Source: Vicinamibacteria bacterium (GTDB lineage: Bacteria > Acidobacteriota > Vicinamibacteria > Marinacidobacterales > Marinacidobacteraceae). From it: a DNA stretch of 64,000 nt. The number at the start of each line of letters is the position of its first letter. The stretch's first letter is position 1. Below the pieces are notes generated by a model that worked only from the letters and a program-made list of their open reading frames with translations, had not been told where the DNA came from and searched no databases. The stretch is taken from NCBI GenBank assembly GCA_963668695.2, contig CAXXLQ010000004.1, positions 3,008,001-3,072,000 on the forward strand, written 5' to 3'. Both the position numbers and the translations under genes were made by a program. This document shows positions 7,146-36,493 of the stretch, piece after piece.

Positions 7146-7360
7146 CAGCCTGTGGCGAAACCCATGCGGCCCAGTTCTCCCGGTGGGGGCTCGCCCGGCG
7201 ATGCATCCCGGCTGAATCACTCCGCTTCGCTTCGTTCCGCGTTGCGTTTCGGTCGAAATACACTCGGTATTCCTCCCTCACGCGCCTTGTCAGCCGGGCG
7301 CCTCGCCCCACCGGGAGAACTGGCCGGGCTCGGCGCTCACCTCGGTTCCACCACAGGCTG
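7146..7360 (+). mobile_element. MITE copy M1 (215 bp; 18-mer at sites A and C)
   Basis: TTAA|CAGCCTGTGGCGAAACC...GGTTCCACCACAGGCTG|TTAA; 18-mer at 7171-7188 and inverted at 7306-7323. Confidence 0.88.
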
Positions 7361-7379
7361 TTAAGGACAGGCGCCGGAT

Positions 7380-7406
7380 GCCCGGCGTACATCCACCGGG
7401 CGCTAC
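7380..7406 (-). repeat. GTAG-type REP-like hairpin
   Basis: Minus strand reads GTAGC-GCCCGG-TGGATGTACG-CCGGGC; only one copy seen. Confidence 0.35.
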
Positions 7407-7455
7407 GGGCTGCGATTTTGCCGGGAGGCGAAGACTTCCCGAGGAGGACAAGAAG

Positions 7456-10332
7456 ATGATCTGGCGAACCTGGATCCGGAACGGCGGGCGCGGATGTTTA
7501 ACAGCCGGTGGCAGAACCCAGGCGGCGTTCGACCGGCGATGCATCCCGCCTGAACCGCGCCGCTATGCGGCGCTCGGCGTTGCGCTTCGGTCGAAATACA
7601 CTCGGTATTCCTCCCTCACGCGCCTTGTCAGTCGCGCGCCTCACCGCTCTCGGCGCTCACCCGGGTTCCACCACAGGCTGTTAACAGCCTGTGGCAAAAC
7701 CCACGCGGCCCAGTTCTCCCGGTGGGGGCTCGACGGGCGATGCATCCCGGCTGAACCGCCCCGCTTCGCGGGGCTCTGCGTTGCGCTTCGGTCGAAATAC
7801 ACCCGGGCCAGTTCTCCCGGTGGGGGCTCCTCCCTCACGCGCCTTGTCAGCCGGGCGCCTCGCCCGTCTCGGCGCTCACGTGGGCTTCACCAAAGGCTGT
7901 TCACGGGGATCCTGGCGGCGGGCGTCGCGACCGCCGGGCCCAGCGCGGCGAGCGCCCAGTCCGAAACCGTCCTCATTCGCGCGCGGACGATCCACACCGT
8001 CACCAGCGGAACCCTTCACGAGGGCGAGATCCTGATCCGGAACGGGATCATCGAGGCGGTCGGCCCGTCCGTGGATGTTCCCGCCGACGCCCGCGTGTAC
8101 GAAGCCCAAGTGGTGATCCCGGGCCTGATCGACGCGCACGCGCACCTCGCCCTGGACCGTTCCGGCCGCTCGCGCATCCCCGGCCCGGTGACCGCCGAAT
8201 GGAAAGCCGTGGAGCACCTGGAGCTGTCGGATCCCATGATCCAGGTGGCGCTCTCCGGAGGCGTGACGTCGCTGGTCACGCGCCCGGGCAGCGGTGTCAT
8301 TTCCAGTGGGCAGTCGGTCGCGCTCAAGTTGAAGCGCATTCCAGGTCCGGAGATGATCCTCAAGCCCTATGTGGACCTGAAGATGGCCGTGCGCCCGCTG
8401 ATCAACCTGCGGCCAGGCGAGACGCCGCAGACGGTGATGGGGTGGTACGCCGCCGCCGACGAGTACTTCCGCCGCGCACAAGCCTATGTGCGAGAGCAGG
8501 AAGCCCGCGCAGCCGGAGCCGGAGCCGGACCGGCGCGTGACGAGCGCCTGGAGGCCTTCGCGGCCGTGATCCGGGGGGAGGTCATGGTCCACGCGCACGC
8601 GCACTATCCGAGCGAGGTGATGATGGTGCTGCGCCTGGCGCGCAAGTACGGCTTCTTCGACCGCTTGGCCCTCGCGCACGCGGAGGAGATCTTCCCGCTC
8701 ACCGAGCTGCTCGCCGGAACCAACATCGTCCCGGTCATCGGTCCGATGATGATCGTCCAGTATTTCAACGATCCAGAGCCCCTGAATCTGCTGAAGGAAC
8801 TCCTGGACGCAGGCGTGCACGCCAGCATCCAGACCGACATGTCGAACCAGCACTTCAAGGACTTCCGCGAGTACGGGGCGTTTCTGGCGCGCCACGGCCT
8901 CACTGACGAACAGGCGCTCGAGGTAATGACAATCAACGGAGCGCGCGCGATGATGCTCGACCACCGGGTGGGCAGCATCGAAGTCGGAAAGGACGCGGAC
9001 CTGGTGCTGCTCGACGGGCATTTCCTCGATCTGACCGCCGACCGGGTGGAGCGCGTGTTCGTGGACGGGCGGCTCGAGTACGAGCGCGACCGCGTGCTCC
9101 AGCCCGAACGACCCCGCGCCGTGGGGCCGTTTACCCCGGTGATCGGGGCGATCACTCCGGACGACGAGGCCTTCGCCATCACGGGCGCGCATGTGTTCAC
9201 CGTGAGCAGCGGCGCAATACACAACGCCACCCTGGTAGTCGAGGACGGCCGGTTCACCCGGGTGGAGGCGGACGCCGCTCCGCCCGCGGGGATGGCGGTC
9301 ATGGACGTAGGGGGCAGGGTGGTCATGCCGGGAACGGTGATCGCGCGCGCTTTTCCCAACGACTGGATCGGCGACCTCAAGTGGCAGGTGCAAAACGACG
9401 AGACCACCGCGCCGGTGGTGCCGGAGATGAACGCCCTGTACGCCGTGGACCCATGGTTTCCGTCGTACCGGGTGAACACGACGATCGGAGTGACCGCGAT
9501 CCACGTCACGCCCGGCACGCGCAATCTGGTGGGCGGCAACGGCGTCGTGGTGAAAACGCCTGGCCTCGACTTCGAGAAGATGGTGCGCCGCGAGCCCGCC
9601 AGCATGGTGTTCGCCCTCACCGCCTCGGCGCTCAGGGAGTGGACGGACGAGGCCGGGGCGCCGCTGACGGTCGAAAGCGCCTCGGCGATGGTCAGAAAGA
9701 CGCTGGACGCCGCACGCAGGTACGCGGAGGCGGAGGAGCCCCAGGAGTACGACGCGCGCCTCGAAGCGCTCCTGCCGCTACTCCGGCGAGAGGTGCCGGC
9801 GATGGTTCATGCGGATCGCGTGGCCGAGATCGAAGAGGCGCTGAGCCTCGCGGAGGACTACGGCCTGAGGCTCGTGATCACCGGCGGAGTGTCGGCGCAC
9901 CGACTGGCCGACCGGCTCGCGGCGGCCGGCGCGGGAGTCATTCTGGGCAACTCCGGGAGCTACGCGTCGGACATCCGCGGGGGTGGTGAGGGCTGGAGCG
10001 TGGAGGGGCCCGCCATCCTGAACCGGGCCGGCGTCAAGGTGGCGTTTTTCGGTCCGGGCGCCTCGCGGCGCGCTTCGCCCATCGGGCGGCTGGGCGGTGA
10101 GCCGATCCTCAACGCGGCGTGGGCCTTCCGCAACGGCGTCCCGGAGGTGGACGCGCTGAGGATGGCGACGCTGCATGCCGCCGAGCTGCTCGACTCGGGC
10201 GATCGGATCGGAAGCATCGAACCGGGCAAGGACGCGGATTTCGTCATTCTGGAAGGGCATCCGTTCGACTACCGGGTGGTGCCGGGGTGGGTGTTCGTGG
10301 ACGGGAGATTGGAGGTGGGCGGTCCTCAGTAA
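7456..10332 (+). CDS. Secreted tandem two-domain amidohydrolase with an in-frame 134-aa MITE-derived insertion
   Basis: RBS GAGGAGG before ATG 7456; PGLIDAHAH, GSIEVGKDADLV, second unit GSIEPGKDADFV; MITE DNA at 7502-7899 is read through. Confidence 0.85.
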   Translation: MIWRTWIRNGGRGCLTAGGRTQAAFDRRCIPPEPRRYAALGVALRSKYTRYSSLTRLVSRAPHRSRRSPGFHHRLLTACGKTHAAQFSRWGLDGRCIPAEPPRFAGLCVALRSKYTRASSPGGGSSLTRLVSRAPRPSRRSRGLHQRLFTGILAAGVATAGPSAASAQSETVLIRARTIHTVTSGTLHEGEILIRNGIIEAVGPSVDVPADARVYEAQVVIPGLIDAHAHLALDRSGRSRIPGPVTAEWKAVEHLELSDPMIQVALSGGVTSLVTRPGSGVISSGQSVALKLKRIPGPEMILKPYVDLKMAVRPLINLRPGETPQTVMGWYAAADEYFRRAQAYVREQEARAAGAGAGPARDERLEAFAAVIRGEVMVHAHAHYPSEVMMVLRLARKYGFFDRLALAHAEEIFPLTELLAGTNIVPVIGPMMIVQYFNDPEPLNLLKELLDAGVHASIQTDMSNQHFKDFREYGAFLARHGLTDEQALEVMTINGARAMMLDHRVGSIEVGKDADLVLLDGHFLDLTADRVERVFVDGRLEYERDRVLQPERPRAVGPFTPVIGAITPDDEAFAITGAHVFTVSSGAIHNATLVVEDGRFTRVEADAAPPAGMAVMDVGGRVVMPGTVIARAFPNDWIGDLKWQVQNDETTAPVVPEMNALYAVDPWFPSYRVNTTIGVTAIHVTPGTRNLVGGNGVVVKTPGLDFEKMVRREPASMVFALTASALREWTDEAGAPLTVESASAMVRKTLDAARRYAEAEEPQEYDARLEALLPLLRREVPAMVHADRVAEIEEALSLAEDYGLRLVITGGVSAHRLADRLAAAGAGVILGNSGSYASDIRGGGEGWSVEGPAILNRAGVKVAFFGPGASRRASPIGRLGGEPILNAAWAFRNGVPEVDALRMATLHAAELLDSGDRIGSIEPGKDADFVILEGHPFDYRVVPGWVFVDGRLEVGGPQ
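7502..7680 (+). mobile_element. MITE copy M2 (179 bp, no 18-mer)
   Basis: TTAA|CAGCCGGTGGCAGAACCC...GGGTTCCACCACAGGCTG|TTAA; defines the empty alleles of sites A, B and C. Confidence 0.88.
7685..7899 (+). mobile_element. MITE copy M3 (215 bp; sites A and B), tandem to M2
   Basis: Shares TTAA 7681-7684 with M2 and ends AAGGCTG|TTCA; 18-mers at 7710-7727 and 7808-7825. Confidence 0.88.
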
Positions 10333-10548
10333 CAGCCTGTGGTGGAACCCGGGTGAGCGCCGAGAACGGCCAGTTCTCCCGGTGGGGGCGAGACGCCCGG
10401 CTGACAAGGCGCGTGAGGGAGGAATACCCAGTGTATTTCGACCGAAACGCAATGCAGAGCGCCGCAAAGTGGCGCGGTTCAGGCGGGATGCATCGCCGCT
10501 CGAGCCCCCACCGGGAGAACTGGGCCGCCTGGGTTTCACCACAGGCTA
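10333..10548 (-). mobile_element. MITE copy M4 (216 bp; sites A and C)
   Basis: Begins directly after the TAA stop (GTAA|CAGCCTGTGGTGGAACCC); 18-mers at 10370-10387 and 10506-10523. Confidence 0.85.
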
Positions 10549-10594
10549 TTCCGCTCGCGAGCGGCGCCTGCCGCACCGCCGGACTTCGCTTCGG

Positions 10595-10932
10595 CGGCGT
10601 GTTCCTGCAACCCACCTACGGCAACACCCTGATGGGGCTTGCTCCGGCGCGCCCGCCGACTCCCGAGGACGGCTACAAGATCGCCTACTACCCCCCGCTG
10701 CCAAGCGCCGTGCTGGAAGTCGTGGATTCCGACACCGGCGAGGTGGTGGACCATGGCGAAACCGGGCGGGTCCGTCTCACCGCGCTCACGCGGGAGTTCT
10801 TCGTCCCCGGTTTCCTTGAGCGCGACGAGGGCGAACGCGAGCCGCCGTGGGGACCCTACGCCTGGGACGGCGTCAGCGGCGTCCGCCCCCTTCGGGCAAC
10901 TCCCCGGCGGCACCACGGTCGGGGTCTACTGA
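10595..10932 (+). pseudogene. Displaced 3' fragment of the EhpF-like gene (diverged copy of 6791-7127)
   Basis: GVFLQPTYGNTLMGLAP...GGTTVGVY*; no 5' part; +1 C frameshift near 10890; differences mostly at third codon positions. Confidence 0.88.
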
Positions 10933-10970
10933 CAGGGAAACCCCGACTTTTCCCAAGGCCGGCTGGGCAA

Positions 10971-11013
10971 GGGAACGCCGGCCTCCGATCGGCATCGCCC
11001 GCCAGAGGCGGGC
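10971..11013 (+). repeat. REP-like double hairpin R1
   Basis: GGGAAC-GCCGG-CCTCCG-ATCGGC-ATC-GCCCGCC-AGA-GGCGGGC; related to R2-R5. Confidence 0.6.
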
Positions 11014-11049
11014 TCGACGCAGAAGCCGCGAGGATGGATGGGACGGTGT

Positions 11050-11880
11050 TCAAATTACGGCGTCGTCCAGCTCGATGATGACCGGAGCGCATGGGGCCCA
11101 GTTTTGGCCCGGCAGCTCGTCAAGCGGCCCGCGGTATTTGAGGTCCACACAAGCGGACGTGACATGAGGAGCGACGCTCTTCGATCCGAGAATCAGATGG
11201 AGCCGGGTGTTGGGATCCGTCGGGGCACCCTTGTAGTGAATCGGCGTACCGGAGTTGAAGCCCGCTTCATCTTCGCTATGAAAGTCACGGTACAGGTCCA
11301 CAAAACCCCCGTCGCACAACGCCTGTAGCGCATCCCGTTCTTCTCTTGACCGGTAGAGCGTGTCAGGTTTGGGCTCGCCGTCCAGAACGACATTGAAATC
11401 CCCGCAGAGGAAGGTCGGCTTCGACCCGTCGTATTGATCGGCGACGTGCTTGGTCAGACCGTCCAACCACTTCACCTTGGACTTGATCGAACGGCGGATC
11501 TGATCTTTGTTCTTGCTGCCATATGGCGCCGCGGGCAGGTAGACGGAGGAGATCCGCAGTCTGCCGGTGTCCACCGTGAGCAATCTTCCATCCGCTTCCC
11601 GGCCAGGCCATCCTCTCTGCAGCACTTCCGGTTCTCGGGCTCCGGTCAGGAGGTCCTGTCGGATCAGGATCGCGACGCTGGCTAGTTCATAGTCGGGGAA
11701 AAGAGCCTCGATGTGGTAGCCGAGATCCGCAATTCTCTGTCTCGGGAACTCCTCCTGCCGTTTGCAGGAGATACGAATCTTCTGCAGTGCGACGATTTCA
11801 GGCTGCCGCTGCTGCAGCCAGTGGTGCAGATACCCGAGTCGTTTGTTCACGCCGTTCACGGACCAGGTTGCGATTTTCAT
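11050..11880 (-). CDS. Exodeoxyribonuclease III/EEP-family protein, divergent
   Basis: MKIATWSVNGV, PEIVALQ, SVYLP, LCGDFNV, FVDLYR; visibly lower GC than its neighbours. Confidence 0.8.
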   Translation of the reverse strand: MKIATWSVNGVNKRLGYLHHWLQQRQPEIVALQKIRISCKRQEEFPRQRIADLGYHIEALFPDYELASVAILIRQDLLTGAREPEVLQRGWPGREADGRLLTVDTGRLRISSVYLPAAPYGSKNKDQIRRSIKSKVKWLDGLTKHVADQYDGSKPTFLCGDFNVVLDGEPKPDTLYRSREERDALQALCDGGFVDLYRDFHSEDEAGFNSGTPIHYKGAPTDPNTRLHLILGSKSVAPHVTSACVDLKYRGPLDELPGQNWAPCAPVIIELDDAVI

Positions 11881-12038
11881 GGATGGATCCTCCCCTCGGA
11901 CTGTCCACCATATGGCTCCAACATGTCAGTTTTTGTCACGGTGCCGGCCGATCCGAGCTGGGGGCGATAACCGGGTCTGCTACAGCGGGACAGAGGTTCG
12001 GCGGACGTGCCGCGGGCAGGGCGGGGGTCTGCGCCGTT

Positions 12039-12085
12039 CCGCGGCGCCGCGCGCCGCGGGTGCCGGTCTGAAGACCGGCGCTCCC
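12039..12085 (-). repeat. REP-like double hairpin R2
   Basis: Minus strand GGGAGC-GCCGGTCT-TC-AGACCGGC-AC-CCGCGGCGC...GCGCCGCGG. Confidence 0.6.
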
Positions 12086-12132
12086 AAGCCGCCGGCGCCA
12101 TCAGCGCAAGTAGCGGTGTTCTGGACGCTCCG

Positions 12133-14160
12133 TCAGTTCGTGGTGGGATGCGTCCGGTACTTGTCGAACCAAGCCACGATGTTGGCGATCTTCGCCATCA
12201 ACTGGCTCGGGCGGCGGCTCATGTCGTGAGACGCGCCGGGCAGCCGGACCACGGCTGTGTCGATCCCGCGGAACTTGAGGGCGTGAAACAGTTGGTACGA
12301 CTCGGATAGCGGCGTCCGGAGATCCTCTTCTCCGGTGACGATCAGGGTCGGCGTCTTCACGTTGCCGGCCAGGGAGAGCGGCGAGAACTTCCAGTAGGGC
12401 TCCGGGTTCTCCCAGGGGAGGCCCTCGTAGCGGCTGAAGTAGTAGCCGTACCAGTTGTCGGCGGTGAGCGTCTTACTGATCCAGTTGACGACCGGTTTCT
12501 GGGCGGCGGCAGCGCGGAAGCGGTCCGTCTTCCCGACGATCCACGCGGTCATGATCCCGCCGGCGCTGCCGCCGGTCACGAAGAGGTTGTCCTCGTCGAC
12601 GTACCCGCGGGCAATCACCGCGTCCACTCCCGACATGAGGTCGTCATAGTCGTTGCCCGGGTAATTGCGGTACAGCAGGTCCCCGAACTCCTCGCCGTAG
12701 CTCGTGCTGCCACGGGGGTTTGCATATAGGACGACGTACCCGGCGGCGGCGAGCAACTGCATCTCCGCGGAGAAGCGGTCGCCGTAGTTGGAGATCGGCC
12801 CGCCGTGGATCTCGAGAATCAGCGGGTACCGGCGCCCCGGATCGAAGTCGGGCGGTTTGACGATCCAGCCCTGGACCGCGCGGCCGTCGAAGGATGAATC
12901 CCACCAGATCTCCTCGACTTCGCCGAGGTTCCTGCCGGCGAGCAGATCCTCGTTGAGCGAGGTTAGCTGCCGCACCGCGTCACCGGGCATGCCCACCGCG
13001 AGCTCGCCCGGCTGATCCGGGCGGCTCTGGTTGAACGCGAAGGCGCCGGTGTTCGCGACCGAGAACGACCCGCCGCCGTAGGGGCGGCCGTAGGAGGCGC
13101 CGCCAAGGTCCGCCCCCAGAACCGCGAGCTCGCCGTCCAGCGTCACGAAGGCGACCTTCGAGTTGCCCTCGTCGTCATACTGGAAGTAGAGGCGGTGCCC
13201 GTCCGCCGCCCACACCGGATTCGAGACACTCCGGTCCAGGCCGGTCGTGACGACGCGCTGGCCGCTCCCGTCCAGATTCATGACCTGGAGTCGGCTGACC
13301 TGGTAGGTCCGCACCCGGTCCTCGTAGCCCACGAACGCGATCTGCTGCCCGTCGGGAGAGACGGCGGGGCTCTGGTCCGGCCCGTTCCGGTCGGTCAGCG
13401 CGCGGATCTCCCCGCCGGCGACCGGCGCAATGTAGAGATCCGAGTTGCGGTAGTCGTGCACCCAGTCGGGGTTGCGGTTCGAGGAGAAGACGAGGTGCCG
13501 GCCGTCCGGCGTCCAGGCGGCGGGACTCGAGTGTTGAAAGTCGCCCGAAGTGACCTGCACCGGCGTACCGCCTTCGACCGGGAGAACGAAGAGGTGGCTG
13601 TAACCGAAGTCGAGATAGCCCACCCCGTCCTGGCGGTTCTTGAAGCGGTCCTCCATGATCGGAGGATCAGCCCAGTCGGCGCCGGGGGGCGGTTTCGGGG
13701 GTGGGGCGAGTTGGGGCGGGGGATAGGGCACCAGCATGTTGAACGCGAGGTGGCGGCCCTCGGGCGACCAGCGGATATTTCTCGGCGATTCAAGAAGCTG
13801 GGTGAGGGTGGCCGTCTCGCCGGTATCCATCCAGCGCAGGTGGATCTGGCCGTCCGCGGTGAAGGCGATGCGGGTCCCGTCCGGGGACCAACGAGGTGAC
13901 GAGCCGGCGCTTAGCCGGCGGTGGCCGGTGCCGTCGGCGTTCACGATCCACAGTTCGGGCCGCTGGCGGTCGCGCATGATGTCCATCGAGGTCCGGACAT
14001 AGATGACCTGGCTGCCGTCCGGGGAAATCTGCGGATCCGCCGCGAATTCGAGTTGGAAGACGTCCATGGGCTGGAACGACTCCTGGGCCCCGGAGGAAGC
14101 GGGGCCGATGACGAGGACCAGCGCGGCGGCAAGAAGGTTCGTTCGGTGGATTCCGGGCAT
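12133..14160 (-). CDS. S9 family peptidase (acylaminoacyl/dipeptidyl peptidase), paralog 1
   Basis: Signal peptide, TolB-like repeats (WSPDG), IHGGP, NPRGS, GGSAGG, DLRTP, catalytic His (ASHD). Confidence 0.92.
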   Translation of the reverse strand: MPGIHRTNLLAAALVLVIGPASSGAQESFQPMDVFQLEFAADPQISPDGSQVIYVRTSMDIMRDRQRPELWIVNADGTGHRRLSAGSSPRWSPDGTRIAFTADGQIHLRWMDTGETATLTQLLESPRNIRWSPEGRHLAFNMLVPYPPPQLAPPPKPPPGADWADPPIMEDRFKNRQDGVGYLDFGYSHLFVLPVEGGTPVQVTSGDFQHSSPAAWTPDGRHLVFSSNRNPDWVHDYRNSDLYIAPVAGGEIRALTDRNGPDQSPAVSPDGQQIAFVGYEDRVRTYQVSRLQVMNLDGSGQRVVTTGLDRSVSNPVWAADGHRLYFQYDDEGNSKVAFVTLDGELAVLGADLGGASYGRPYGGGSFSVANTGAFAFNQSRPDQPGELAVGMPGDAVRQLTSLNEDLLAGRNLGEVEEIWWDSSFDGRAVQGWIVKPPDFDPGRRYPLILEIHGGPISNYGDRFSAEMQLLAAAGYVVLYANPRGSTSYGEEFGDLLYRNYPGNDYDDLMSGVDAVIARGYVDEDNLFVTGGSAGGIMTAWIVGKTDRFRAAAAQKPVVNWISKTLTADNWYGYYFSRYEGLPWENPEPYWKFSPLSLAGNVKTPTLIVTGEEDLRTPLSESYQLFHALKFRGIDTAVVRLPGASHDMSRRPSQLMAKIANIVAWFDKYRTHPTTN

Positions 14161-14172
14161 GTTTCGACTCTC

Positions 14173-14211
14173 GGGTTCGGGTTCGGTTGGGTTTGGGTTT
14201 GGGTTTGGGGG
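14173..14211 (+). repeat. (GGGTTY)n hexamer microsatellite
   Basis: GGGTTCGGGTTCGGTTGGGTTTGGGTTTGGGTTTGGGGG in the spacer between the two S9 genes. Confidence 0.75.
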
Positions 14212-14244
14212 AGAAGCTCTGCAACTTACCAGAGGCTTGCGGGA

Positions 14245-16320
14245 TCAGTTGCCCGCCGAAGTCCGGTACTTCTCGAACCAGGCGACCTGGTTGGCGACCT
14301 TCGCGATCAACTGGCTCGGGCGCCGGCTCATGTCATGGAACGCCCCGGGCAGCCGGATCACCGCCGTGTCGATGCCGCGGAACTTGAGGGCGTGGAACAA
14401 CTGGTACGACTCCGACAGGGGTGTCCGCAGGTCCGCCGCCCCGGTGATGATCATGGTCGGCGTACTCACGTTCCCGACCAGGGAGAGCGGCGAGAACTTC
14501 CAGTAGGGCTCCGGATCCTCCCAGGGGAGGCCCTCGTAGCGGCTACCGAAGTAGTTGAACCAGTTGTCCGCGGTGAGCGTCTTGCTGATCCAGTTGATGA
14601 CCGGCTTTTCGGAGACGGCGGCGCGGAAGCGGTCGGTCTTCCCCACGATCCAGGCGGTCATGATCCCGCCAGCGCTACCGCCGGTCACGAAGAGGTTGGC
14701 CTCATCCACGTACCCGCGGGCGATCACCGCATCCACCCCGGACATGAGGTCGTCGTAGTCGTTGCCCGGGTAGTTGTGGTAGAGCAGATCCCCGAACTCC
14801 CCGCCGTAGCTCGTGCTGCCACGGGGGTTGGCGTACAGCACCACGTATCCGGCGGCGGCGAAGAGCTGCATCTCTGCCGAGAAGCGGTCGCCGTAGTGGG
14901 CGATCGGCCCGCCGTGGATTTCGAGGATGAACGGGTACCGGCGGGTCGGATCGAAGTCAGGCGGCTTCACGATCCAGCCCTGGACGGGGCGGCCATCGAA
15001 GGACGAATCCCACCAGATCTCCTCGACTTCGCCGAGGGTCCGCCGGCCGAGCAGGTCCTCGTTGAGCGAGGTGATCCGCCGCACCTCACCGCCGGGGGTC
15101 CCCACCGCGACCTCGCCCGGTTGATCCGGCCGTGTCTGGTTGAACGCGAAGCCGCCGCCGGCCGCAACCGAGAACGACCCGCTGCCGTAGGGAAGGCCGT
15201 AGGACGACCCCCCGACGCCCTGCCCGAGAACCGCGACCTCGCCGTCCAGGGTGGTGAAGGCGACCTTGGTGTTGCCCTCGTCGTCGTAACGGAAGTAGAT
15301 GCGGTGCCCGTCGGCGGCCCACACCGGATTCGAGACGCTTCGGTCCAGGCCGGTGGTGACGACCCGCCGGCCGCTCCCGTCCAGGTTCATCACCTCGAGA
15401 CGGCTGACCTGGTAGGTCCGCACCCGGTCGTCGTAACCCACGAATGCGATCCGCTCTCCGTCAGGAGACACCGCCGGGCTGTGGTCCGGCCCGTTCCGGC
15501 TGGTCAGCGCCCGGATCTCTCCGCCCGCGACCGGCGCGAGGTAGAGCTCCGAGTTGCGGTAGTCGTGCTCCCAGTCGGGGTTGCGGTTCGACGAGAAGAC
15601 GAGGTGAAGGCCGTCGGGGGTCCAGGCGGCGGGCCCGGAATGCTGGAAGTCGCCGGTGGTGACCTGAAACGGCGTGCCGCCTTCGACCGGGAGCACGAAG
15701 ATGTGGTCATAGCCGAAGTCGAGATAGCCGACTCCGTCCTGCTTGCTCTTGAAGCGGTCTTCCATGATCGGGGGATCGGCCCACTCCGCGCCCGGAGGCG
15801 GTTGCGGCGGGGCGACGAGCTGCGGAGGCGGGTAGGGCACCAGCATGTTGAAAGCGAGGTGGCGGCCGTCCGGCGACCAGCGGATGTTTCTTGGCGATTC
15901 CAGGAGCTGGGTGAGGGTGGCCGTTTCGCCGGTGTCCATCCAGCGCAAGTGGATCTGGCCCTCCGCTATGTAGGCGACCTGGGTCCCGTCCGGCGACCAG
16001 CGCGGGGCGGCGCCGGCGCTCAAGCGGCGATGACCGGACCCGTCAGCGTTCACGATCCACAGCTCGGTGCGCTGCTGGTCGCGCATGATGTCCATCGAGG
16101 TGCGGACGTAGACGACCTGGCTGCCACCCGGGGAAATCTGCGGATCCACCGCGAATTCGAGCTGGAAGACGTCCGTTGGCTCGAACCGCGCCGAATCGGC
16201 GTTTGCGGCCGTTTGGGCCTCGGCGTGGACCGGGAAGCTGCTGAGCGCCAACGCCGCGGTGAGCGCGAGGGCGCCCGCCGGGGCGAGGGGAATCAGATTC
16301 GTTCGAGTGATTCTGGACAT
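14245..16320 (-). CDS. S9 family peptidase, paralog 2 (tandem duplicate)
   Basis: Same motifs; long stretches identical to 12133-14160. Confidence 0.92.
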   Translation of the reverse strand: MSRITRTNLIPLAPAGALALTAALALSSFPVHAEAQTAANADSARFEPTDVFQLEFAVDPQISPGGSQVVYVRTSMDIMRDQQRTELWIVNADGSGHRRLSAGAAPRWSPDGTQVAYIAEGQIHLRWMDTGETATLTQLLESPRNIRWSPDGRHLAFNMLVPYPPPQLVAPPQPPPGAEWADPPIMEDRFKSKQDGVGYLDFGYDHIFVLPVEGGTPFQVTTGDFQHSGPAAWTPDGLHLVFSSNRNPDWEHDYRNSELYLAPVAGGEIRALTSRNGPDHSPAVSPDGERIAFVGYDDRVRTYQVSRLEVMNLDGSGRRVVTTGLDRSVSNPVWAADGHRIYFRYDDEGNTKVAFTTLDGEVAVLGQGVGGSSYGLPYGSGSFSVAAGGGFAFNQTRPDQPGEVAVGTPGGEVRRITSLNEDLLGRRTLGEVEEIWWDSSFDGRPVQGWIVKPPDFDPTRRYPFILEIHGGPIAHYGDRFSAEMQLFAAAGYVVLYANPRGSTSYGGEFGDLLYHNYPGNDYDDLMSGVDAVIARGYVDEANLFVTGGSAGGIMTAWIVGKTDRFRAAVSEKPVINWISKTLTADNWFNYFGSRYEGLPWEDPEPYWKFSPLSLVGNVSTPTMIITGAADLRTPLSESYQLFHALKFRGIDTAVIRLPGAFHDMSRRPSQLIAKVANQVAWFEKYRTSAGN

Positions 16321-16425
16321 TGTGCGACTCTTCGATTCAGGGTGAGGGGCAGGCTCTCCAAGTACGAAAGCCCGACCTACGCATCATGACGGAGTGGCGG
16401 CACTATGGCCATGCGCACCCGCTAG

Positions 16426-16657
16426 CAGCCTGTGGTGGAACCCGGGTGAGCGCCGAGGCCGCCAGTTCTCCCGGTGGGGGGAGGCGCCCGGCTGACAAGG
16501 CGCGTGAGGGAGGAGCCCCCACCGGGAGAACTGGCCCGGGTGTATTTCGACCGAAACGCAACGACGAGCGGCGCGAAGCGACGCGGTTCAGCCGGGATGG
16601 ATCGCCGGCCGAGCCCCCACCGGGAGAACTGGGCCGCGCGGGTTTCATTACAGGCTG
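16426..16657 (-). mobile_element. MITE copy M5 (232 bp; sites A, B and C)
   Basis: CTAG|CAGCCTGTGGTGGAACCC...TTACAGGCTG; 18-mers at 16462-16479, 16517-16534 and 16615-16632. Confidence 0.87.
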
Positions 16658-16661
16658 TTTG

Positions 16662-16801
16662 GGCGGGATGCATCGCCGGCCGTTTCCGGAGCGGGGCGCA
16701 AGCACCGCGTAGACCCCGGAGCGGAAAGGACGGGGGGCGGGACCACCCGACCCCCATCCCTTCTTGGCTCGGGAACGCCGCCGGGGTTTCACCACCGGCG
16801 G
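16662..16801 (-). mobile_element. Partial MITE copy M5b with a different insert of about 91 bp
   Basis: GGCGGGATGCATCGCCGG and AACGCCGCCGGGGTTTCACCACCGGCGG|CTAA match the MITE left arm and are separated by unrelated hairpin DNA at 16683-16773. Confidence 0.65.
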
Positions 16802-16817
16802 CTAAACTCCGTCGCCC

Positions 16818-18239
16818 GTGATCCGCGTTCCGGTCCTCCGCTGGGGAAAGCCCTACCGCAGTCTGGAGACGACGACCGTTTCCCACTTCCTCACCGGCGA
16901 GCCGGTTGCCGAGGTGGATCAGGTCACGCCGGGAATCGTGAAGCGCGACCTGAGGCGGGCCGGAATGGCGCGTGCGGCGCTCCGGGATTTCCCGATCCGG
17001 GATCTGCTGGCCCGCGTAAAGGAGGCCGCCCGCCTCTACATGGAGGCAGAACTGCCGCTCGGCGACGCCACCCAGAGCCCGCAGGAGTTCGTCCGCTCCC
17101 AGTCGGGGACCACTGGCCTCCCGGAATCCATGTGCCGCGCCAACATGGAAAAGAACCGCTTCGTGCTCGAGCGGATGGACCAGGTACTGGACGCCCTGAC
17201 CCGCGGCCTGGACCTCGACATCCTTTCGACCGGACACGGGATGGAGGAGCGGGGCGTCCCGGTGTCCTACCAGGCGCAGACGCCGGTGCTCGCCTGCGTC
17301 CTGCCGTCCAACTCGCCGGGCGTTCACACGCTCTGGCTTCCGGTGATTCCCCTGCAGATCGGTCTCGTGCTCAAGCCGGGTCCCGAAGAGCCCTGGACCC
17401 CGTACCGGATGGCCGAGGCCTTCTTCGCCGCCGGGATTCCCCGGGAAGCGATCGCCGTCTATCCCGGTGGCGCCGAGGTAGGGGCGGCGGTGGTCGAAGC
17501 GGCGCCGCGAACGCTGATCTTCGGCAGCCGGGCGACAGTGGAGCGCTACCGGAGCAATCCGTCGGTGCGCGTCCACGGCCCCGGGTTCTCGAAGATTCTG
17601 CTCGGTGACGACTTGGTGGATCGCTGGGAAGAGCATCTGGACGTGCTCTTCGAGAGCGTTTTCCTGAACAGCGGACGCAGTTGCATCTCCTGTTCCGGCA
17701 TTTGGGCGTCCCGGCATACCGAGGCGATCGCCGCGGCGCTCGCGGAGCGGCTCGCCTCGTTCCGGCCGCGTCCTCCCGACGATCCCGAGAGCGCACTCGC
17801 CGCCTTTACGGTTCCCGGAATGGCCGAAACGATTGACCGGGACATCGAACAGCGCCTGGCTGGCGGCGGGGCCAGCGATCTCACCGCCACGCTCCGCGAC
17901 GGCCCGCGGCTCGTGCAGGAGGGACGCGCTTCCTGGCTGCTTCCCACGGTCCTGCATTGCGAGAGCCCACAAGTGCCGGCCGCGAACGTGGAATACATGT
18001 TTCCGTTCGTCTCGGTGGTCCGCTGTCCGCAGGAAGAAATGATCGGACGGATCGGAGACACCCTGGTGGCCACCGCAATCACCGACGACGTGAGTTTTCG
18101 GACGGATCTGCTGGAGACGACCTCGATCGATCGCCTGAATTTCGGACCGATCCCGACAACCCGGCTCAATTGGCTCCAGCCGCACGAGGGCAACATCGTG
18201 GATGTGCTCTACCGGGCCCGGGCATTCCAGAGCGCCTGA
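16818..18239 (+). CDS. Aldehyde dehydrogenase superfamily protein (EhpG/LuxC-like acyl reductase type)
   Basis: LPSNSP, LKPG, IFGS, HGPGFSK in place of ELGG, NSGRSC (catalytic Cys), EYMFP. Confidence 0.82.
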   Translation: MIRVPVLRWGKPYRSLETTTVSHFLTGEPVAEVDQVTPGIVKRDLRRAGMARAALRDFPIRDLLARVKEAARLYMEAELPLGDATQSPQEFVRSQSGTTGLPESMCRANMEKNRFVLERMDQVLDALTRGLDLDILSTGHGMEERGVPVSYQAQTPVLACVLPSNSPGVHTLWLPVIPLQIGLVLKPGPEEPWTPYRMAEAFFAAGIPREAIAVYPGGAEVGAAVVEAAPRTLIFGSRATVERYRSNPSVRVHGPGFSKILLGDDLVDRWEEHLDVLFESVFLNSGRSCISCSGIWASRHTEAIAAALAERLASFRPRPPDDPESALAAFTVPGMAETIDRDIEQRLAGGGASDLTATLRDGPRLVQEGRASWLLPTVLHCESPQVPAANVEYMFPFVSVVRCPQEEMIGRIGDTLVATAITDDVSFRTDLLETTSIDRLNFGPIPTTRLNWLQPHEGNIVDVLYRARAFQSA

Positions 18240-18244
18240 GAGGC

Positions 18245-18949
18245 GTGGATACGAGCGAAGGACGCGCGGGGTCCGTGACCGGGGGCCTCCAGGTATCGGG
18301 GCTCGTCAAGGACTATCCGGCGCCTTCCGGGCTGCTGCGCGTGCTGGACGGAGTGGATCTGGAGCTGCGGCCCGGCGAAGCCGCCTCGGTGATGGGCGCC
18401 TCGGGCTGCGGCAAGAGCACCCTCCTCTTCGTGCTCGGCGCGATCGAGGCCCCCTCCGCCGGAGAAGTTCGGCTCGACGGAGTGGATCCCCACGAACTCG
18501 ACCCGGACGACCAGGCCGGCTTCCGGCGGGACCAGGTGGGTTTCGTGTTCCAGGATCACTGCCTCCTGCCGCAGTGCACGGCGCTCGAGAACGTGCTGGC
18601 GCCGACCCTTCCGGATCCGCGTCCGAACGACGCCGAGCGCGCCGCCGCCCTGCTCGACCGGGTGGGGCTGTCCGGCCGGCTGCGACACCTCCCGGCGGAG
18701 CTTTCCGGCGGCGAGAAACAGCGGGTGGCGATCGCCCGTGCCCTCGTGCGGGCGCCCCGTCTCCTGCTGTGCGACGAGCCGACCGGCAACCTGGACGGGG
18801 AATCTGCCGACGAGGTGGCGGCCCTGCTCCTGGAGGCGAGTGCGCTCGACGAGGGCCGGATCGTCGTCCTGGTCACTCACGACGCGGAGCTGGGAGGGCG
18901 TTTCCCGAAGCGTTTCCGGATGAGCCGGGGGCGCCTCACCGGCATTTAG
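18245..18949 (+). CDS. ABC transporter ATP-binding protein (LolD/MacB-like)
   Basis: [44 protein letters not shown]; start is GTG 18245 or 18275. Confidence 0.92.
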
Positions 18950-19365
18950 CAGCCGGTGAACAGAGTCACGCGGCCCAGTTCTCCCGGTGGGGGCTCGGCC
19001 GGCGACGCATTCCGGCTGAAACGCTTTGCTTCGCATCGCTCATCGTTGCGCTTCGGTCGAAATACACTCGGGCCAGTTCTCCCGGTGGGGGCTCCTCCCT
19101 CGCGCGCCTTGTGAGCCGGGCGCCTCACCGGCATCGGCGCTAGCAGCCCGTGGTGAAACCCAAGCGGCGTTCGAGCGGCGATCCATCCCGCCTGAACCGC
19201 GCCGCTTTGCGGCGCTCTGCGTTGCGTTTCGGTCGAAATACACTCGGGCCAGTTCTCCCGGTGGGGGCTCCTCCCTCACGCGCCTTGTCAGCCGGGCGCC
19301 TCGCCGCTCTCGGCGCTCACCCGGGTTCCACCACAGGCTGCTAACGTCACTCTGTCCACAGACTG
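18950..19365 (+). mobile_element. MITE copy M6 (second TIR subtype; sites A and B), interrupted by M7
   Basis: TTAG|CAGCCGGTGAACAGAGTCACG...CGTCACTCTGTCCACAGACTG|CTAA; 215 bp once M7 and 4 bp are removed; 18-mers at 18975-18992 and 19073-19090. Confidence 0.85.
19144..19340 (+). mobile_element. MITE copy M7 (197 bp; site B only), nested in M6
   Basis: CTAG|CAGCCCGTGGTGAAACCC...CCACAGGCTG|CTAA; 18-mer at 19249-19266. Confidence 0.87.
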
Positions 19366-19372
19366 CTAAGCG

Positions 19373-23623: not shown

Positions 23624-23639
23624 TGCAATGCTCCCGGAT

Positions 23640-25062: not shown

Positions 25063-25074
25063 CGGCGACGCTCC

Positions 25075-30026: not shown

Positions 30027-30113
30027 CCACCACCTCGGGGACTGCTGCACACGGCGGACGCCGCCCGGCGCCCGCGTCGGCCCGGCTTCCGCTAGCGCCG
30101 GATGCGCGCTGGA

Positions 30114-31211: not shown

Positions 31212-32251
31212 CAGAAGTGGAGGTTGAAGCTGAAGTCGGGTGTCCGTCCGGCCTCGATGAGAACGATCCACTCTTTCAGTCGGCCGCGGTCCATTTCCCA
31301 GAAGTTTCCGCACAACTCCAGATACCGCACCACCGCCCGAGTTTCTCCGTGCTCGAGCAGCTTCTTGGCGAGCGCCATATCCGGCCCGAAGGAATTCAAC
31401 TGGGACGACCCGGGAGTCTGGCCCGCTGCAATCAGGCGGGCGCGGGCCTCTTCCAAATCACCGTCTGCAAGAGCGAGCCGGCCCAGAATCAGGTTGCCGT
31501 AGTGAATTCGGTTTCCCCCATTCCAGTCGTCGGGGATCGCTTTGAGCATGGCCTCGGCGTAGCCGCGGGCCTTCTCCATTCCGCCGGCGACGAAGGCGGT
31601 CTTCCCTAGATCGTCCAGCAAGCTGCCGCGCTCCAACGCGCTCGCGAGTTCGTAGGCGCGCTCGAAGTCGGCAAGGGCGAGGGCGGCGCCGTCACGGTCC
31701 GATCCCTCAAACGGGTTGTGGGCTTCCAGCCAACGCAAATGCCCACGCTCTTGCGCCCAATGCGGGTTCGACGGATCGAGCTCCCCGCCCCGTGCCAGCA
31801 GTTGGCTGGAAAGCGCGGTATCCGTAAGAGCGAAGAAGTTGGCGGCGTGTTTCAGGAACACCGCATTCCTCGGCTCGTTCTCCAATTGCCTGAGCCAGGC
31901 CTCCTTCGCCTCCGCGTAACCCTCGGGGTCGAACATCGCCATGATTTCTGTTTCCGGCCACTCCAGCACTTCCGATTCGGGAGCGTTCCGGATGAACCAG
32001 AGGACGTGTTGGGTTTGCCGGGTGCGATCGCTGCGGCGCTCCCCGAAGTAGTAGCCCAGCAGCCGCGCACGGGCGTTCAGATCCTGAGGGTTCGCCGTGA
32101 GGTGCTGTTCGAGCGCGGCAGCCTGCTCTGACGTCAGCTCGCGACCTGCGAGCAGTTCGTCGAACAAATCCTCTTCGGAGGCAATACCCGGTGATCCGAA
32201 CAGGATGGGCGCTGTCAGGGCGCCGACCAGGAAAATCCAGCGAAGCGACAT
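31211..32251 (-). CDS. Secreted TPR-like helical protein, paralog A
   Basis: MSLRWIFLVG signal peptide; colinear similarity to 30114-31211 (LWFIRNAPESE, LADFERAYEL, YLELC, WIVLIEAGR). Confidence 0.75.
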   Translation of the reverse strand: MSLRWIFLVGALTAPILFGSPGIASEEDLFDELLAGRELTSEQAAALEQHLTANPQDLNARARLLGYYFGERRSDRTRQTQHVLWFIRNAPESEVLEWPETEIMAMFDPEGYAEAKEAWLRQLENEPRNAVFLKHAANFFALTDTALSSQLLARGGELDPSNPHWAQERGHLRWLEAHNPFEGSDRDGAALALADFERAYELASALERGSLLDDLGKTAFVAGGMEKARGYAEAMLKAIPDDWNGGNRIHYGNLILGRLALADGDLEEARARLIAAGQTPGSSQLNSFGPDMALAKKLLEHGETRAVVRYLELCGNFWEMDRGRLKEWIVLIEAGRTPDFSFNLHF

Positions 32252-32446
32252 GGCAGGCCTCCGGGAAGAGCGAAAGGTACCGAAACGCAAGCAAACCACA
32301 GGCCATGGGGAGCAGGTGGCGCTTTGTCGTCCGGAGGCCGGTGTGTGGTCCGCGGAGAGGGAACCGCGACCTGCGCGGCGCGTAACGTTGACGGTGGGCT
32401 CCGCTTGCGCGAACGTATGGCCTGAATCTCGCAACGACGACTCTCG

Positions 32447-34906: not shown

Positions 34907-34915
34907 CGGGCGGTT

Positions 34916-34993
34916 TCAGGGCCGCGGCCCGCCCGTGCCGAACCCGGTCACGCCGATCCGGCGGGGGACGTAGTGATCGGGATCCACCGTCCG
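34916..34993 (-). pseudogene. Displaced 78-bp copy of the 3' end of the amidohydrolase at 36494-36571
   Basis: Encodes RTVDPDHYVPRRIGVTGFGTGGPRP* against RTVDPDHYIPRRIGVTGFGTGGPRP*. Confidence 0.85.
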
Positions 34994-35025
34994 ACGGCAG
35001 AACCTGCGGCCGTGACCCTCCCGGA

Positions 35026-36120
35026 TCAGTAGCCCACGAAGTCGAGGGCCGGTGATCCGAATCCCGCAATCAGCAGCAGACTGACGGCTCCCACCACTGC
35101 GGCGGCGAAGAGCCCGAAGAGAAACGGACGGAGGCCGATGCGGCGCAGGCCGGCGAAGCTCGACTGCAGCCCCACCCCCGCCATGGCCATGAGCAAACAG
35201 GTTTCGGCTGCATGGCGGAAGAACACAACCGTCTGCCCCCAAACGTCCGGATCGAGAAAACCGAATGGCTGATCCCCGTGATCGCCGAGCGTGCGGAGGG
35301 CGGAGCACGCCGCGAACGCGATCACGAACCAGGGAATCATGCGCAGCCAGGCGCGGGCGCCCGGAGATCCGACCGACCGCGTTTCGCCGAAGAGAATGCC
35401 GGCCAGCGGGATCAACGCCAGCATCGCAAGGTTCCTCACCAGTTTGGTGACGGTGGCGACATCGAGCGCCACCGGAGCGCCGTACTGGGCCTGGTACATC
35501 ACGCCAGCCCCCGCAACCTGGGCGGTTTCGTGGATGGACACCCCGAGGAAAAGTCCGGCAAGTTCCGGCCGGCCGGCAAAGACCGCGTTCGCGAGGATCG
35601 GGTATCCGAACATCGCGGCGATCCCGAACACAGTGATGCAGGAAACGGCGTAGCCGACCTCGGCCTGTTTGGCTCGAATCAACGGCGCGGTAGCGACGAT
35701 CGCGGTGGCCCCACAGATACTCGTCCCGGCTGCGATCAACCCGGCCAGGGTCCGCGAGAGCCCGAGGCGCGGTCCCAGGAGCCGGACCACGCCGACGCCA
35801 GCGACGATTGCCATCACGACGAAGGGCAGGGCCGCCAGGGTGAATCTGCCGGCAGCGAGGAGGCTCAGGCGAAAGCCGAGCAGCACGATGCCGAGGCGCA
35901 GGATCGTGGTCGAACAGAATCGCAGTCCCGGCGTTGTGGTCCGCGCCCAATCGGACACATTGGAGACGACCATGCCGAGGACGATGGCCAGCACGATCGG
36001 GCTGATCGGACTGCCCGAGAGTCCGAGCAGCGACTCCGCGATCCATCGCGCGGAAAACGTGGCGGCTGCCGAGACCAGCGCCGCCAGAGCCAGTCCGGTC
36101 CAGAAGGGGGGCGATCGCAT
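35026..36120 (-). CDS. YeiH/putative sulfate exporter family membrane protein
   Basis: LRLGIVLLG, GTSICGATAI, SIHETAQV, ATVTKLVRN, PWFV, AMAGVGL. Confidence 0.88.
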   Translation of the reverse strand: MRSPPFWTGLALAALVSAAATFSARWIAESLLGLSGSPISPIVLAIVLGMVVSNVSDWARTTTPGLRFCSTTILRLGIVLLGFRLSLLAAGRFTLAALPFVVMAIVAGVGVVRLLGPRLGLSRTLAGLIAAGTSICGATAIVATAPLIRAKQAEVGYAVSCITVFGIAAMFGYPILANAVFAGRPELAGLFLGVSIHETAQVAGAGVMYQAQYGAPVALDVATVTKLVRNLAMLALIPLAGILFGETRSVGSPGARAWLRMIPWFVIAFAACSALRTLGDHGDQPFGFLDPDVWGQTVVFFRHAAETCLLMAMAGVGLQSSFAGLRRIGLRPFLFGLFAAAVVGAVSLLLIAGFGSPALDFVGY

Positions 36121-36259
36121 CGTCTGCTTTGTCCGTTCCCACTCTCGGTGGCGGTTTAGCCTACCCGCACCGTCCCGCCGCCGCATCCGAGGGTGAAGCC
36201 GGGGACGGTGGCGAAACTGGCGCAGTTCCCCTTTCCGCGACGCCGCGGGCGCTGCCTAG

Positions 36260-36493
36260 CAGCCTGTGGATAAAGTGACGTGAGCGCCGAGGCCCCCACC
36301 GGGAGAACTGGCCGGTGAGGCGCCCGGCTGACAAGGCGCGTGAGGGAGGAGCCCCCACCGGGAGAACTGGCCCGGGTGTATTCCGACTGAAACGCAACGC
36401 AGAGCGCCGCAAAGCGGCGCGGTTCAGGCGGGATGCATCGCCGGTCGAGCCCCCACCGGGAGAACTGGGCCGCGTGACTCTGTCCACAGGCTG
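36260..36493 (-). mobile_element. MITE copy M8 (234 bp; second TIR subtype; sites A, B and a flipped C)
   Basis: CTAG|CAGCCTGTGGATAAAGTGACG...CGTGACTCTGTCCACAGGCTG|CTAG; 18-mers at 36294-36311, 36353-36370 and 36451-36468. Confidence 0.88.

Follow-up and report, generated by a model that had tools for sequence, protein, structure and literature searches.

The 64,000-nucleotide stretch of DNA analysed here (hereafter the window; positions 3,008,001 to 3,072,000 of contig CAXXLQ010000004.1, GenBank assembly GCA_963668695.2, from a Vicinamibacteria bacterium) carries an 18-bp word, the unit, at several positions and in both orientations within copies of a MITE (miniature inverted-repeat transposable element). 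The unit is a real, old and discrete repeat module of one Vicinamibacteria family, and it is a module that has been inserted many times. Its combinatorics within the MITE are best explained by the shuffling of existing alleles, and not by the repeated targeted writing that an initial annotation of the window had proposed. The explanation that we favour, with moderate confidence, combines two processes: a primary insertion of the module and a shuffling of its filled and empty alleles among MITE paralogues.

The unit and its host element

The 18-mer, CCAGTTCTCCCGGTGGGG, matches the window exactly 15 times, at precisely the starts given in the initial annotation and with no additional match at one or two mismatches, so that the 15 copies reported there are reproduced without a mismatch; none of 100 shuffled windows contained 15 matches (shuffle mean 0.01). 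All 15 units lie within eight MITE copies, M1 to M8, and a search with nhmmer returned no further copy of the element in the window. Alignment of the eight copies bears out the occupancy previously described for them: M2 has no unit, M7 has one at site B, M1 and M4 are filled at sites A and C, M3 and M6 at A and B, and M5 at A, B and C, while M8 carries A and B plus a co-oriented unit a few nucleotides off site C. The site C unit is inverted in M1, M4 and M5, and in a single-strand fold of M5 the A unit pairs with the C unit. The flank change described at site B, CGG-TAT-TCC when empty versus CGG-G[18]GC-TCC when filled (where [18] is the unit), is likewise recovered. Measured from one terminal inverted repeat (TIR) to the other, the seven intact copies are 179, 197, 215, 215, 216, 233 and 234 bp long; the proposed length ladder of 179+18n thus holds. 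M6 is cut short by M7, which was inserted into its right end at CTAG. The features are as follows (G004 is a relative of the window's own genome).

7146..7360, + strand: MITE copy M1, 215 bp, TTAA-flanked, units A and C (alignment and profile search)
7171..7188, + strand: unit, site A of M1 (exact match)
7306..7323, - strand: unit, site C of M1, inverted (exact match and alignment)
7502..7680, + strand: MITE copy M2, 179 bp, unit-free, the empty reference (alignment)
7685..7899, + strand: MITE copy M3, 215 bp; its G004 orthologue lacks the site B unit and has TAT instead (alignment)
7710..7727, + strand: unit, site A of M3 (exact match)
7808..7825, + strand: unit, site B of M3, missing in the orthologous copy of G004 (exact match and alignment)
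10333..10548, - strand: MITE copy M4, 216 bp (alignment)
10370..10387, + strand: unit, site C of M4 (exact match and alignment)
10506..10523, - strand: unit, site A of M4 (exact match and alignment)
16425..16657, - strand: MITE copy M5, 233 bp (alignment and fold)
16462..16479, + strand: unit, site C of M5 (exact match and alignment)
16517..16534, - strand: unit, site B of M5 (exact match and alignment)
16615..16632, - strand: unit, site A of M5 (exact match and alignment)
18950..19143, + strand: MITE copy M6, right end lost to M7 (alignment)
18975..18992, + strand: unit, site A of M6 (exact match)
19073..19090, + strand: unit, site B of M6 (exact match)
19144..19340, + strand: MITE copy M7, 197 bp (alignment)
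19249..19266, + strand: unit, site B of M7 (exact match)
36260..36493, - strand: MITE copy M8, 234 bp (alignment)
36294..36311, - strand: unit, rare co-oriented site C' of M8 (exact match and alignment)
36353..36370, - strand: unit, site B of M8 (exact match)
36451..36468, - strand: unit, site A of M8 (exact match)

A hidden Markov model built from the eight window copies gives 1,145 matches, 495 of them near full length, in the genome to which the window belongs (G000), whose assembly has 4.10 Mb in four contigs and a G+C content of 67.5%, and is 91.7% complete with 9.3% contamination. The element, for which a 185-bp reference was used, has TIRs of about 25 nt that pair in the fold and no open reading frame (ORF); its 495 near-full copies measure 179-277 bp, and 117 of them are free of units. 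Copy lengths across the genome form a ladder of 18-nt steps (187/205/223/241/259/277, in coordinates that include 3+3 flank bases plus the bases of the target-site duplication, TSD). The TSD itself is 4 bp and of the YTAR type; at L114:5824, for instance, CTAA stands on both sides of the element versus a single CTAA at the empty site. At 23 loci a MITE is present in a relative and none is found at the matching G000 site. The host is therefore, by its target, a typical, IS5-like MITE. As possible parents of the MITE, G000 has seven DDE_Tnp_1 loci, and the two of these that were checked both lack its TIR, so that no parent IS was identified among them.

With positions numbered along the unit-free copy M2 (window 7498-7682), the unit occupies site A at 29(+) in 203 copies, site D at 63(-) in 76, site B at 109(+) in 213, site E at 140(-) in 166, where it is often doubled, and site C at 146/147(-) in 157; the rare site C', at 148/149(+), contributes seven units among the 495 full copies. 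Orientation is constant at each of A, D, B, E and C. Filled and empty alleles also differ in the bases next to the unit. At site A, GC-GT-TC stands against GC-[unit]GC-TC, with 198 copies filled and followed by GC, 271 empty with GT, and only 3 filled with GT and 2 empty with GC. Site B shows G-TAT-TC or G-G[unit]GC-TC (TAT in 270 copies versus GGC in 204), site C GG-T/C/G-GA or GG[unit]GC-GA, and site D CG-GCGC or CG[unit]GGGC. At site E the insertion is clean, between GC and GCCC, and the neighbouring column 139 is A with single units (61/66) and G with double units (100/100). The remainder of the backbone varies in 50 columns with a minor allele of at least 10%, where the two top letters cover a median of 97% of copies, and 124 of the 185 columns are at least 95% identical. 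Many of the biallelic columns are transversions, such as C/G. In other genera, units follow an unchanged flank rule; they occupy different positions of this MITE and also occur in 44-nt hairpin-unit arrays.

Linkage among MITE copies

Over sites A, D, B, E and C, 30 of the 32 possible presence/absence patterns are seen in the 495 copies. Linkage was analysed over 50 biallelic single-nucleotide polymorphism (SNP) columns together with the five unit sites. Mean r2 falls from 0.33 at distances of up to 3 nt to 0.18 between 3 and 6 nt and 0.09 between 6 and 10 nt; it is 0.03-0.07 farther apart, and about 0.04 beyond 20 nt. All four gametes are present for 98-100% of marker pairs more than 6 nt apart, reaching about 100% at more than 10 nt. 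The earlier assertion that simple vertical descent cannot yield the pattern is thus upheld on the scale of the genome, both by the number of patterns and by the four gametes in about 100% of pairs more than 10 nt apart. The unit sites are tightly linked only to the one to three columns that belong to their own allele (r2 0.96-0.99 for A and B) and are essentially unlinked to polymorphic columns 5 nt away; unit states behave like the family's other polymorphisms. Since the SNP columns are themselves near linkage equilibrium, the occupancy combinations are not evidence for repeated targeted writing, and their use as a sign of it fails, ordinary SNP columns being shuffled just as freely.

Templating within a quasi-palindrome, by which A would be copied from C and B from E, was considered and rejected: co-occurrence is barely above chance, r2 between the B and E units is 0.03, and the A unit is not among the eight best-correlated markers of the C unit, the weakest of which has an r2 of 0.02.

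Differences between orthologous copies

Orthologues were compared between G000 and about 1 Mb of three congeners, in syntenic blocks that are 79-98% identical, with the addition of further loci from relatives. In 23 orthologous MITE pairs (at least 85% identity), 37 internal gaps of at least 10 nt were found, 28 of which equal units (18 nt in 23 cases, 19 in one, 36 in three and 54 in one) and are spread over 13 of the 23 pairs. At site A the differences are mostly unit+GC versus GT, with 14 nt on either side identical (once in L076 and twice in L078), and every listed difference at site B is TAT versus G-unit-GC. That site-specific neighbouring bases are swapped along with the unit points to a template, namely other MITE copies, and not to the addition of a bare 18-mer. 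Gene conversion, which the initial annotation had named fourth among its candidates, is therefore favoured: what changes hands is a site-specific allele, GT versus unit+GC at A, TAT versus G+unit+GC at B, or a single E unit with its linked base.

Among the polymorphic columns of 11 single-MITE pairs, 131 of 530 (24.7%) are discordant between orthologues, where 44.7% would be expected for two random copies; conserved columns differ in 31 of 1,362 cases (2.3%). Dispersed MITE copies thus seem to exchange sequence in very short patches.

At one further locus (L018:2306-2492 versus G000 C4:3600524-3600786), the outer ends of the MITE are alike and its inner part is inverted between the genomes, which suggests either an in-situ flip across the TIRs or a re-insertion at the same site.

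The unit as an insert outside MITE templates

A second body of evidence concerns units at positions to which no MITE copy could have served as a template. An RND-type ORF of 1,066 codons, present in two G000 copies (C1:38080-41277 and C4:393139-396336), contains the unit in frame, as six codons read PHRENW in a cytoplasmic-side segment. This insert is common to G000 and its congener G001, and exactly these bases are missing from the aligned genes of G004, G006, G008 and G013; in nine more congeners the gene has the 18-nt-shorter length, and in G009 the region measures 795 versus 801 nt. The unit is here followed by GC, where genomes without the insert have CG or CA. Two solo units of relatives that are missing in G000 (L126:10052 and L089:1296) each amount to a net gain of 18 nt with neighbouring bases changed.

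The unit has also landed in itself. In G018 (L131, L134 and L206), one or two levels of nesting are seen at CCCGG^T, where GC or C stands in place of T, and the nested motif has three matches in G000, both strands counted. Exact 18-nt tandem arrays comprise up to five units. Altogether, unit contexts fall into 136 clusters, 88 of them singletons, and include a family of hairpins resembling repetitive extragenic palindromic (REP) sequences, GCCGGTCTGAAGACCGGC. Over 131 non-tandem contexts, the right flank is GC in 80, GT in 14, CC in 12 and GG in 11, for a genome frequency of the GC dinucleotide of 0.107, and the left flank is CGG in 45, GGC in 31, GCG in 13 and GGG in 10. The RND landing, the solo units, the nesting, the arrays and the many contexts lie beyond the reach of paralogous templating. 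The context clusters, the in-frame RND insert and the self-nesting substantiate the notion that the unit is a discrete inserted entity. No spacing peak at 320-6,000 nt that would betray a longer element between two units was found.

A further place in G000 deserves mention: an open frame of 1,021 codons with an ELLQNAEDA motif (Hsp90/sacsin-like ATPase), at C4:1820041-1823103, contains a repeat module that includes the unit in frame.

Distribution among genomes

G000 contains 1,288 exact units and 1,631 with up to two substitutions, one variant, T6 to C, making up 156 of the latter. Of the 1,631, 1,397 (86%) belong to the MITE family and 234 (14%) lie elsewhere, so that the statement that the 18-mer occurs only within MITE copies is true of the window (15/15) and does not extend to the genome. 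The contrast between an invariant unit and diverged backbones also survives in part: the unit is exact in 79% of cases (1,288/1,631), but the contrast was overstated, the best backbone 18-mers being exact in 66% of the 495 copies.

The search of relatives called for earlier finds the exact unit in all 15 congeneric genomes and in four further genera of the family (1/1 genomes of g2, 2/2 of g4, 1/1 of g5 and 1/2 of g6); it is absent from the two genomes of g3, the single genome of g7, and all 16 genomes from two other families of the order. A 14-nt core of the unit is kept across genera. The highest exact counts come from contiguous assemblies (G004 631, G001 564, G008 525, G018 220), and some closed genomes are poor in units (G010 6, G014 45); G019 has 36. 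Named records with the 18-mer are metagenome-assembled genomes labelled Acidobacteria, Vicinamibacteria or Candidatus Marinacidobacterium, and single matches in a few other records look like chance. The 18-mer is also found in contigs of four public runs from four different studies, all of them short-read contigs that are broken at the MITEs. In the literature searched, neither the 18-mer, its complement nor its 14-nt core had a match, and searches for Marinacidobacterium or Vicinamibacteria with MITE or repeats turned up nothing relevant.

Forward and reverse unit counts are even in all 40 bins of contig C4, a weak test of strand balance because most units ride in MITEs of either orientation; locus L130 of G018 holds reverse-oriented units. 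Parts of C4 recur in contig C1 (144.5 kb) as several stretches of full or 99.9% identity, among them the RND gene and, with their 3-kb flanks, copies of a longer element, X, that is described below. Together with the 9.3% contamination, this duplication may reflect a strain variant or a duplicated assembly, and the genome-wide counts therefore hold a few duplicates (43 units lie on C1 and 13 on C3).

With respect to the window, contigs of run X8, from a related strain or species, have a 24-nt insertion, CCTGAGAGGCCCCTTGAGAGGCCC, in a gene region at window position 18234, besides many substitutions.

A reading in two processes

At its origin, the module would have been inserted whole, with defined ends, 3' of (C)GG or GGC, usually with GC behind it and with 0-3 target bases replaced, without target duplication and without inverted repeats. 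Such an insertion would have been repeated often, at no fewer than six MITE positions, in REP-like hairpins, in the unit's own copies and once in frame in the RND gene. For its spread, the pattern described above suggests that the approximately 500 MITE copies act as a recombining population, in which filled and empty alleles (the unit with its one to three attached bases) would be swapped between paralogues by templated conversion of very short patches, alongside transposition of the MITE itself. For example, when two copies form a heteroduplex, every mismatch and loop in it might be repaired independently. Conversion and transposition together would yield all combinations and the 18-nt ladder without repeated de novo writing. 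In the window's genus, the unit's end sequences are also those of the longer mosaic element X.

Several observations weigh against this account. Some orthologous differences carry no trace of a swapped flank: at m8 (G001 versus G000), site A shows a clean 18-nt difference that keeps GT, and the double units of site E appear as clean 36-nt differences with no flank change, and these clean 18- and 36-nt classes are equally expected from true insertion or excision. Filled/empty differences between orthologues were, moreover, compared without polarity, so that each may be a gain or a loss. In the 11 pairs, discordant columns are not clustered (39 adjacent joins versus 37.8 expected, 839 of 2,000 permutations reaching the observed value), and discordance rises only mildly in columns no more than 15 nt from a changed unit site (23/59 versus 60/242). 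Given this lack of clustering, ordinary conversion tracts are not seen; either patches are smaller than the marker spacing, or the toggling of SNPs reflects recurrent mutation. Alignment of short repeats to one reference may also inflate the apparent shuffling. Finally, no enzyme for the primary insertion was found among the families searched in G000.

Candidate enzymes

Three enzyme types that were looked for are not found in G000. The Y1 transposase domain (Y1_Tnp, PF01797) has no match, nor has the Y1 protein of G001 when used as a query; reverse transcriptase (RVT_1, PF00078) gave 0 matches and 0 candidates in this 91.7% complete assembly; and no TnpB zinc ribbon scored above threshold (21.7 bits for the best sub-threshold match). 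Among relatives, 13 of the 15 congeners carry one or two copies of a Y1 gene that has HUH and Tyr motifs, and G016 and G023 also have the gene. Searches of G000, G004, G015, G018 and G019 did not find it, and its presence does not track unit number.

A search for IS110 genes had been advised as well. G000 has one IS110-family element, at C4:482091-483897 (L127), with an open frame of 428 aa and ends unrelated to the unit; it targets a REP-like hairpin and was rejected as a candidate enzyme. It is 98.7% identical to a G004 copy at a different locus (matching the window at about 30,100), and in both G000 and G004 the element is inserted in REP-like hairpin repeats, GTGCCGG...CCGGCGTTCCC.

Alternative explanations

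In an alternative without any conversion, which we consider unlikely, an enzyme would insert an 18-20-nt micro-transposon de novo at every gain and excise it at every loss, with the flank changes set by the enzyme at each target. The clean 18- and 36-nt events and the lack of conversion tracts fit this view, as do the extent of linkage, which spans one to three adjacent bases with polymorphic columns 5-6 nt off keeping their own allele in L076 and L078, the flank signature over the 131 contexts, the insertion in the unique RND gene, and the nested self-insertion, which obeys the same T-to-GC rule as site C and the REP-like hairpin. However, site-specific bases recur in independent events (the extra G at B, GG at D, GT with single and GC with double E units), and such recurrence is not predicted by a single template or enzyme rule. 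Unrelated SNP columns are shuffled equally, the unit has no hairpin (z about 0), TIR or TSD, and G000 lacks a match to a Y1 transposase, a reverse transcriptase or TnpB. It is possible, if doubtful, that the 18-20-nt word is in itself a self-inserting micro-element, the shortest known mobile DNA, written by an enzyme 3' of (C)GG/GGC with replacement of 0-3 bases, with neither target duplication, inverted repeats nor hairpins, and able to land in its own copies, in MITEs, in REP-like hairpins and, in frame, in genes, and that a mosaic element of about 200 bp with the same ends represents its larger cargo form.

A less likely explanation still starts from the longer element X, which was found via a search for half-units and corresponds to the longer element with 18-mer-containing ends that the initial annotation suggested looking for: it runs from CCAGTT to TTCTCCCGGTGGGG, spans 150-380 bp and occupies the same positions as the unit. 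Here the unit would be a remnant of X, either an internal-deletion derivative that keeps both ends or an excision footprint. The two ends of X, joined at their common TT, indeed give the unit exactly. G000 has 30 right ends of X, 15 of them paired with a left end starting CCAGTTGCTGTGAAAATGCAG, and the paired elements vary from 148 to 378 bp and have neither an ORF nor inverted ends. X also occupies unit positions with unit flanks, as in MITE site A at C4:2157838, between ...ACGCGGC and GCTCGGCCGG..., and in unit-poor genomes its ends equal or exceed the units in number (13 right ends versus 6 units in G010). Yet the right junction of X, present in 12 of the 15 genomes of the genus, is found in none of the 12 genomes of six other genera, among which G018 has 220 exact units and G019 36; in these two, the 17 right-end 14-mers examined that lack CCAG in front all prove to be the unit with point changes, located at MITE or hairpin sites, and do not terminate any longer element. 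No orthologous pair with X in one genome and the unit in the other was found (G001 and G004 lack the whole repeat cluster at both loci tried, and X copies in the relatives' loci had no usable G000 orthologue), and no X of transposase size came to light: the distance between paired ends in G008 is 245-508 bp, apart from a single pair at 1,057 bp. The broader spread of units agrees no less well with the reverse order, in which the TT of the unit was the point of insertion of a genus-specific X. X itself resembles a further mosaic of modules; equally, it may be such an insertion.

Unpaired left ends of X were considered as longer elements and proved to be degenerate mosaic copies. In G010, left ends exceed right ends in number (54 versus 13). 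The fold of X has no significant structure (z -0.27), and Rfam gave no match at E up to 1 for window positions 7000-20000 and three X loci. The right end of X reads ...AGGAGGACCCGATCATGAGGGTTTCTCCCGGTGGGG (e.g., L145 395-425), where a putative Shine-Dalgarno-like AGGAGG stands 7 nt ahead of an outward-facing ATG; on the opposite strand, the unit has a GGGAGAA that could play a similar part ahead of an ATG. In G010, three X-type elements stand in tandem with a 383-bp period (C1:648996-650058).

A REP-type or protein-binding role for the unit, with selection holding its sequence constant and the RAYT-like (REP-associated tyrosine transposase) Y1 transposase of the genus moving it, is improbable. 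This view draws on the presence, in 13 of 15 congeners, of a Y1_Tnp gene that has the HUH and Tyr motifs, on the G001 copy (L186 976-1815), which has a REP-like hairpin about 60 nt upstream, on the frequent insertion of units in such hairpins and on the conservation of the 14-nt core across genera. The gene is nonetheless not found in G000, G004, G018 and G019, which include the unit-richest genomes; no unit lies within 1.5 kb of the G001 gene, and 86% of units sit in one MITE family. Nor is the unit palindromic: folded alone or with its flanks, it reaches -1.1 to -4.4 kcal/mol (z -0.09 to +0.46), without a REP-type hairpin. It starts with CCAG and ends with GGGG, and has no GTAG or CGTC, the conserved end of REP repeats (PMC3733652). 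With no palindrome, no tag and no linked RAYT, membership of the REP/REPIN-RAYT systems was rejected.

The chance that the unit is an artefact of adapters, polishing or mis-assembly is negligible, even with the completeness and contamination of G000 and the repetition of parts of C4 in C1: the same 18-mer occurs in many independently deposited genomes and in contigs of runs from four studies (which also settles the adapter screen that had been advised, adapter origin being excluded), its sites and its orientation at each site are fixed, and the RND insert is in frame and common to two species.

Comparison with known systems

To our knowledge, which rests on a limited check of the literature, no 18-nt non-palindromic word has been described that sits in a MITE at several positions and in either orientation and is found in genes and within its own copies as well. 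Several known systems nonetheless share some of its properties.

The IS200/IS605 family and its miniature derivatives resemble the unit in having no inverted repeats and no target duplication and in inserting in a specific orientation set by a short flank, here (C)GG/GGC. Elements of this family need subterminal hairpins of tens of nucleotides and a Y1 transposase. The unit, by contrast, has no hairpins, G000 has no Y1 match, and target bases are replaced, which is not known for this family. An IS200/IS605-like single-stranded DNA element was thus rejected, with no Y1 match in G000, no hairpin in the unit, no significant fold of X and no strand bias, as was a retroelement or RNA-templated insertion, for which G000 has no reverse transcriptase match.

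Like footprints of the P-element type, the unit is made up of both ends of a longer element, a few left-end bases and 12-14 right-end bases. Excision footprints of both transposon ends, such as those of the P-element, vary from event to event, whereas 79% of the 1,631 units are identical, and units also occur in genera where X is not found. DNA uptake sequences or uptake signal sequences are likewise exact words of 10-30 nt, with more than 1,000 copies in both orientations that are conserved across a bacterial family. In the present case, however, 86% of units stand at fixed sites in one MITE family and empty alleles differ from the copies by indels, not by point mutations within the word; a DNA uptake sequence was rejected on these grounds (1,397 of 1,631 units in the one family).

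The system works most like mosaic short repeats, that is, the bacterial interspersed mosaic elements (BIMEs) and REP sequences, the BOX elements, and a minisatellite-bearing MITE of Porphyromonas gingivalis. Its mosaic character shows in the 30 of 32 patterns, in tandem runs of up to five, in the other sites and arrays of other genera and in the unequal numbers of left and right X modules. BOX elements of Streptococcus pneumoniae have the structure boxA-boxBn-boxC, with copies differing in the number of the internal module. In the 'BrickBuilt' MITE of P. gingivalis (PMC4596501), the number of a short internal module similarly gives a length ladder, with tandem runs. Both of these have their module at one place and in one orientation, whereas the unit is found at six or more places, in both orientations, and additionally in a gene, in itself and outside the element. 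With the BIME/REP mosaics of enterobacteria and pseudomonads (PMC2817692 and PMC3116915), the unit shares the short, high-copy, extragenic module of varying number and alternating orientation, and the targeting of modules by IS110-type insertion, IS110 sitting here in a REP-like hairpin. It differs from them in being non-palindromic and without a GTAG/CGTC tag, in lying within a MITE with TIRs instead of forming the element, and in showing no correlation with the Y1 (RAYT-like) gene.

REP/BIME and BOX sequences are old puzzles, in which the movement and the uniformity of modules are largely unexplained. The present case combines a clean 18-nt module with exact ends, in about 1,600 copies, with orthologous presence/absence alleles in closed genomes that are closely related, in-frame insertion in a conserved gene and self-nesting, and adds a MITE family of about 500 copies that is near linkage equilibrium on a 10-nt scale. 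Its point of interest is the primary insertion, whose ends are defined, whose target is (C)GG/GGC^, and which has GC after the unit and replaces 0-3 bases. The system thereby bears on two questions, whether there is a way to insert only 18-20 nt of DNA, and whether dispersed bacterial repeats exchange sequence in very short patches. Should the micro-element reading be true, mobile DNA could be smaller than its present lower limit, and an unknown enzyme would be indicated; among described systems, it is with the mosaic short repeats that the unit and its host MITE are best compared.

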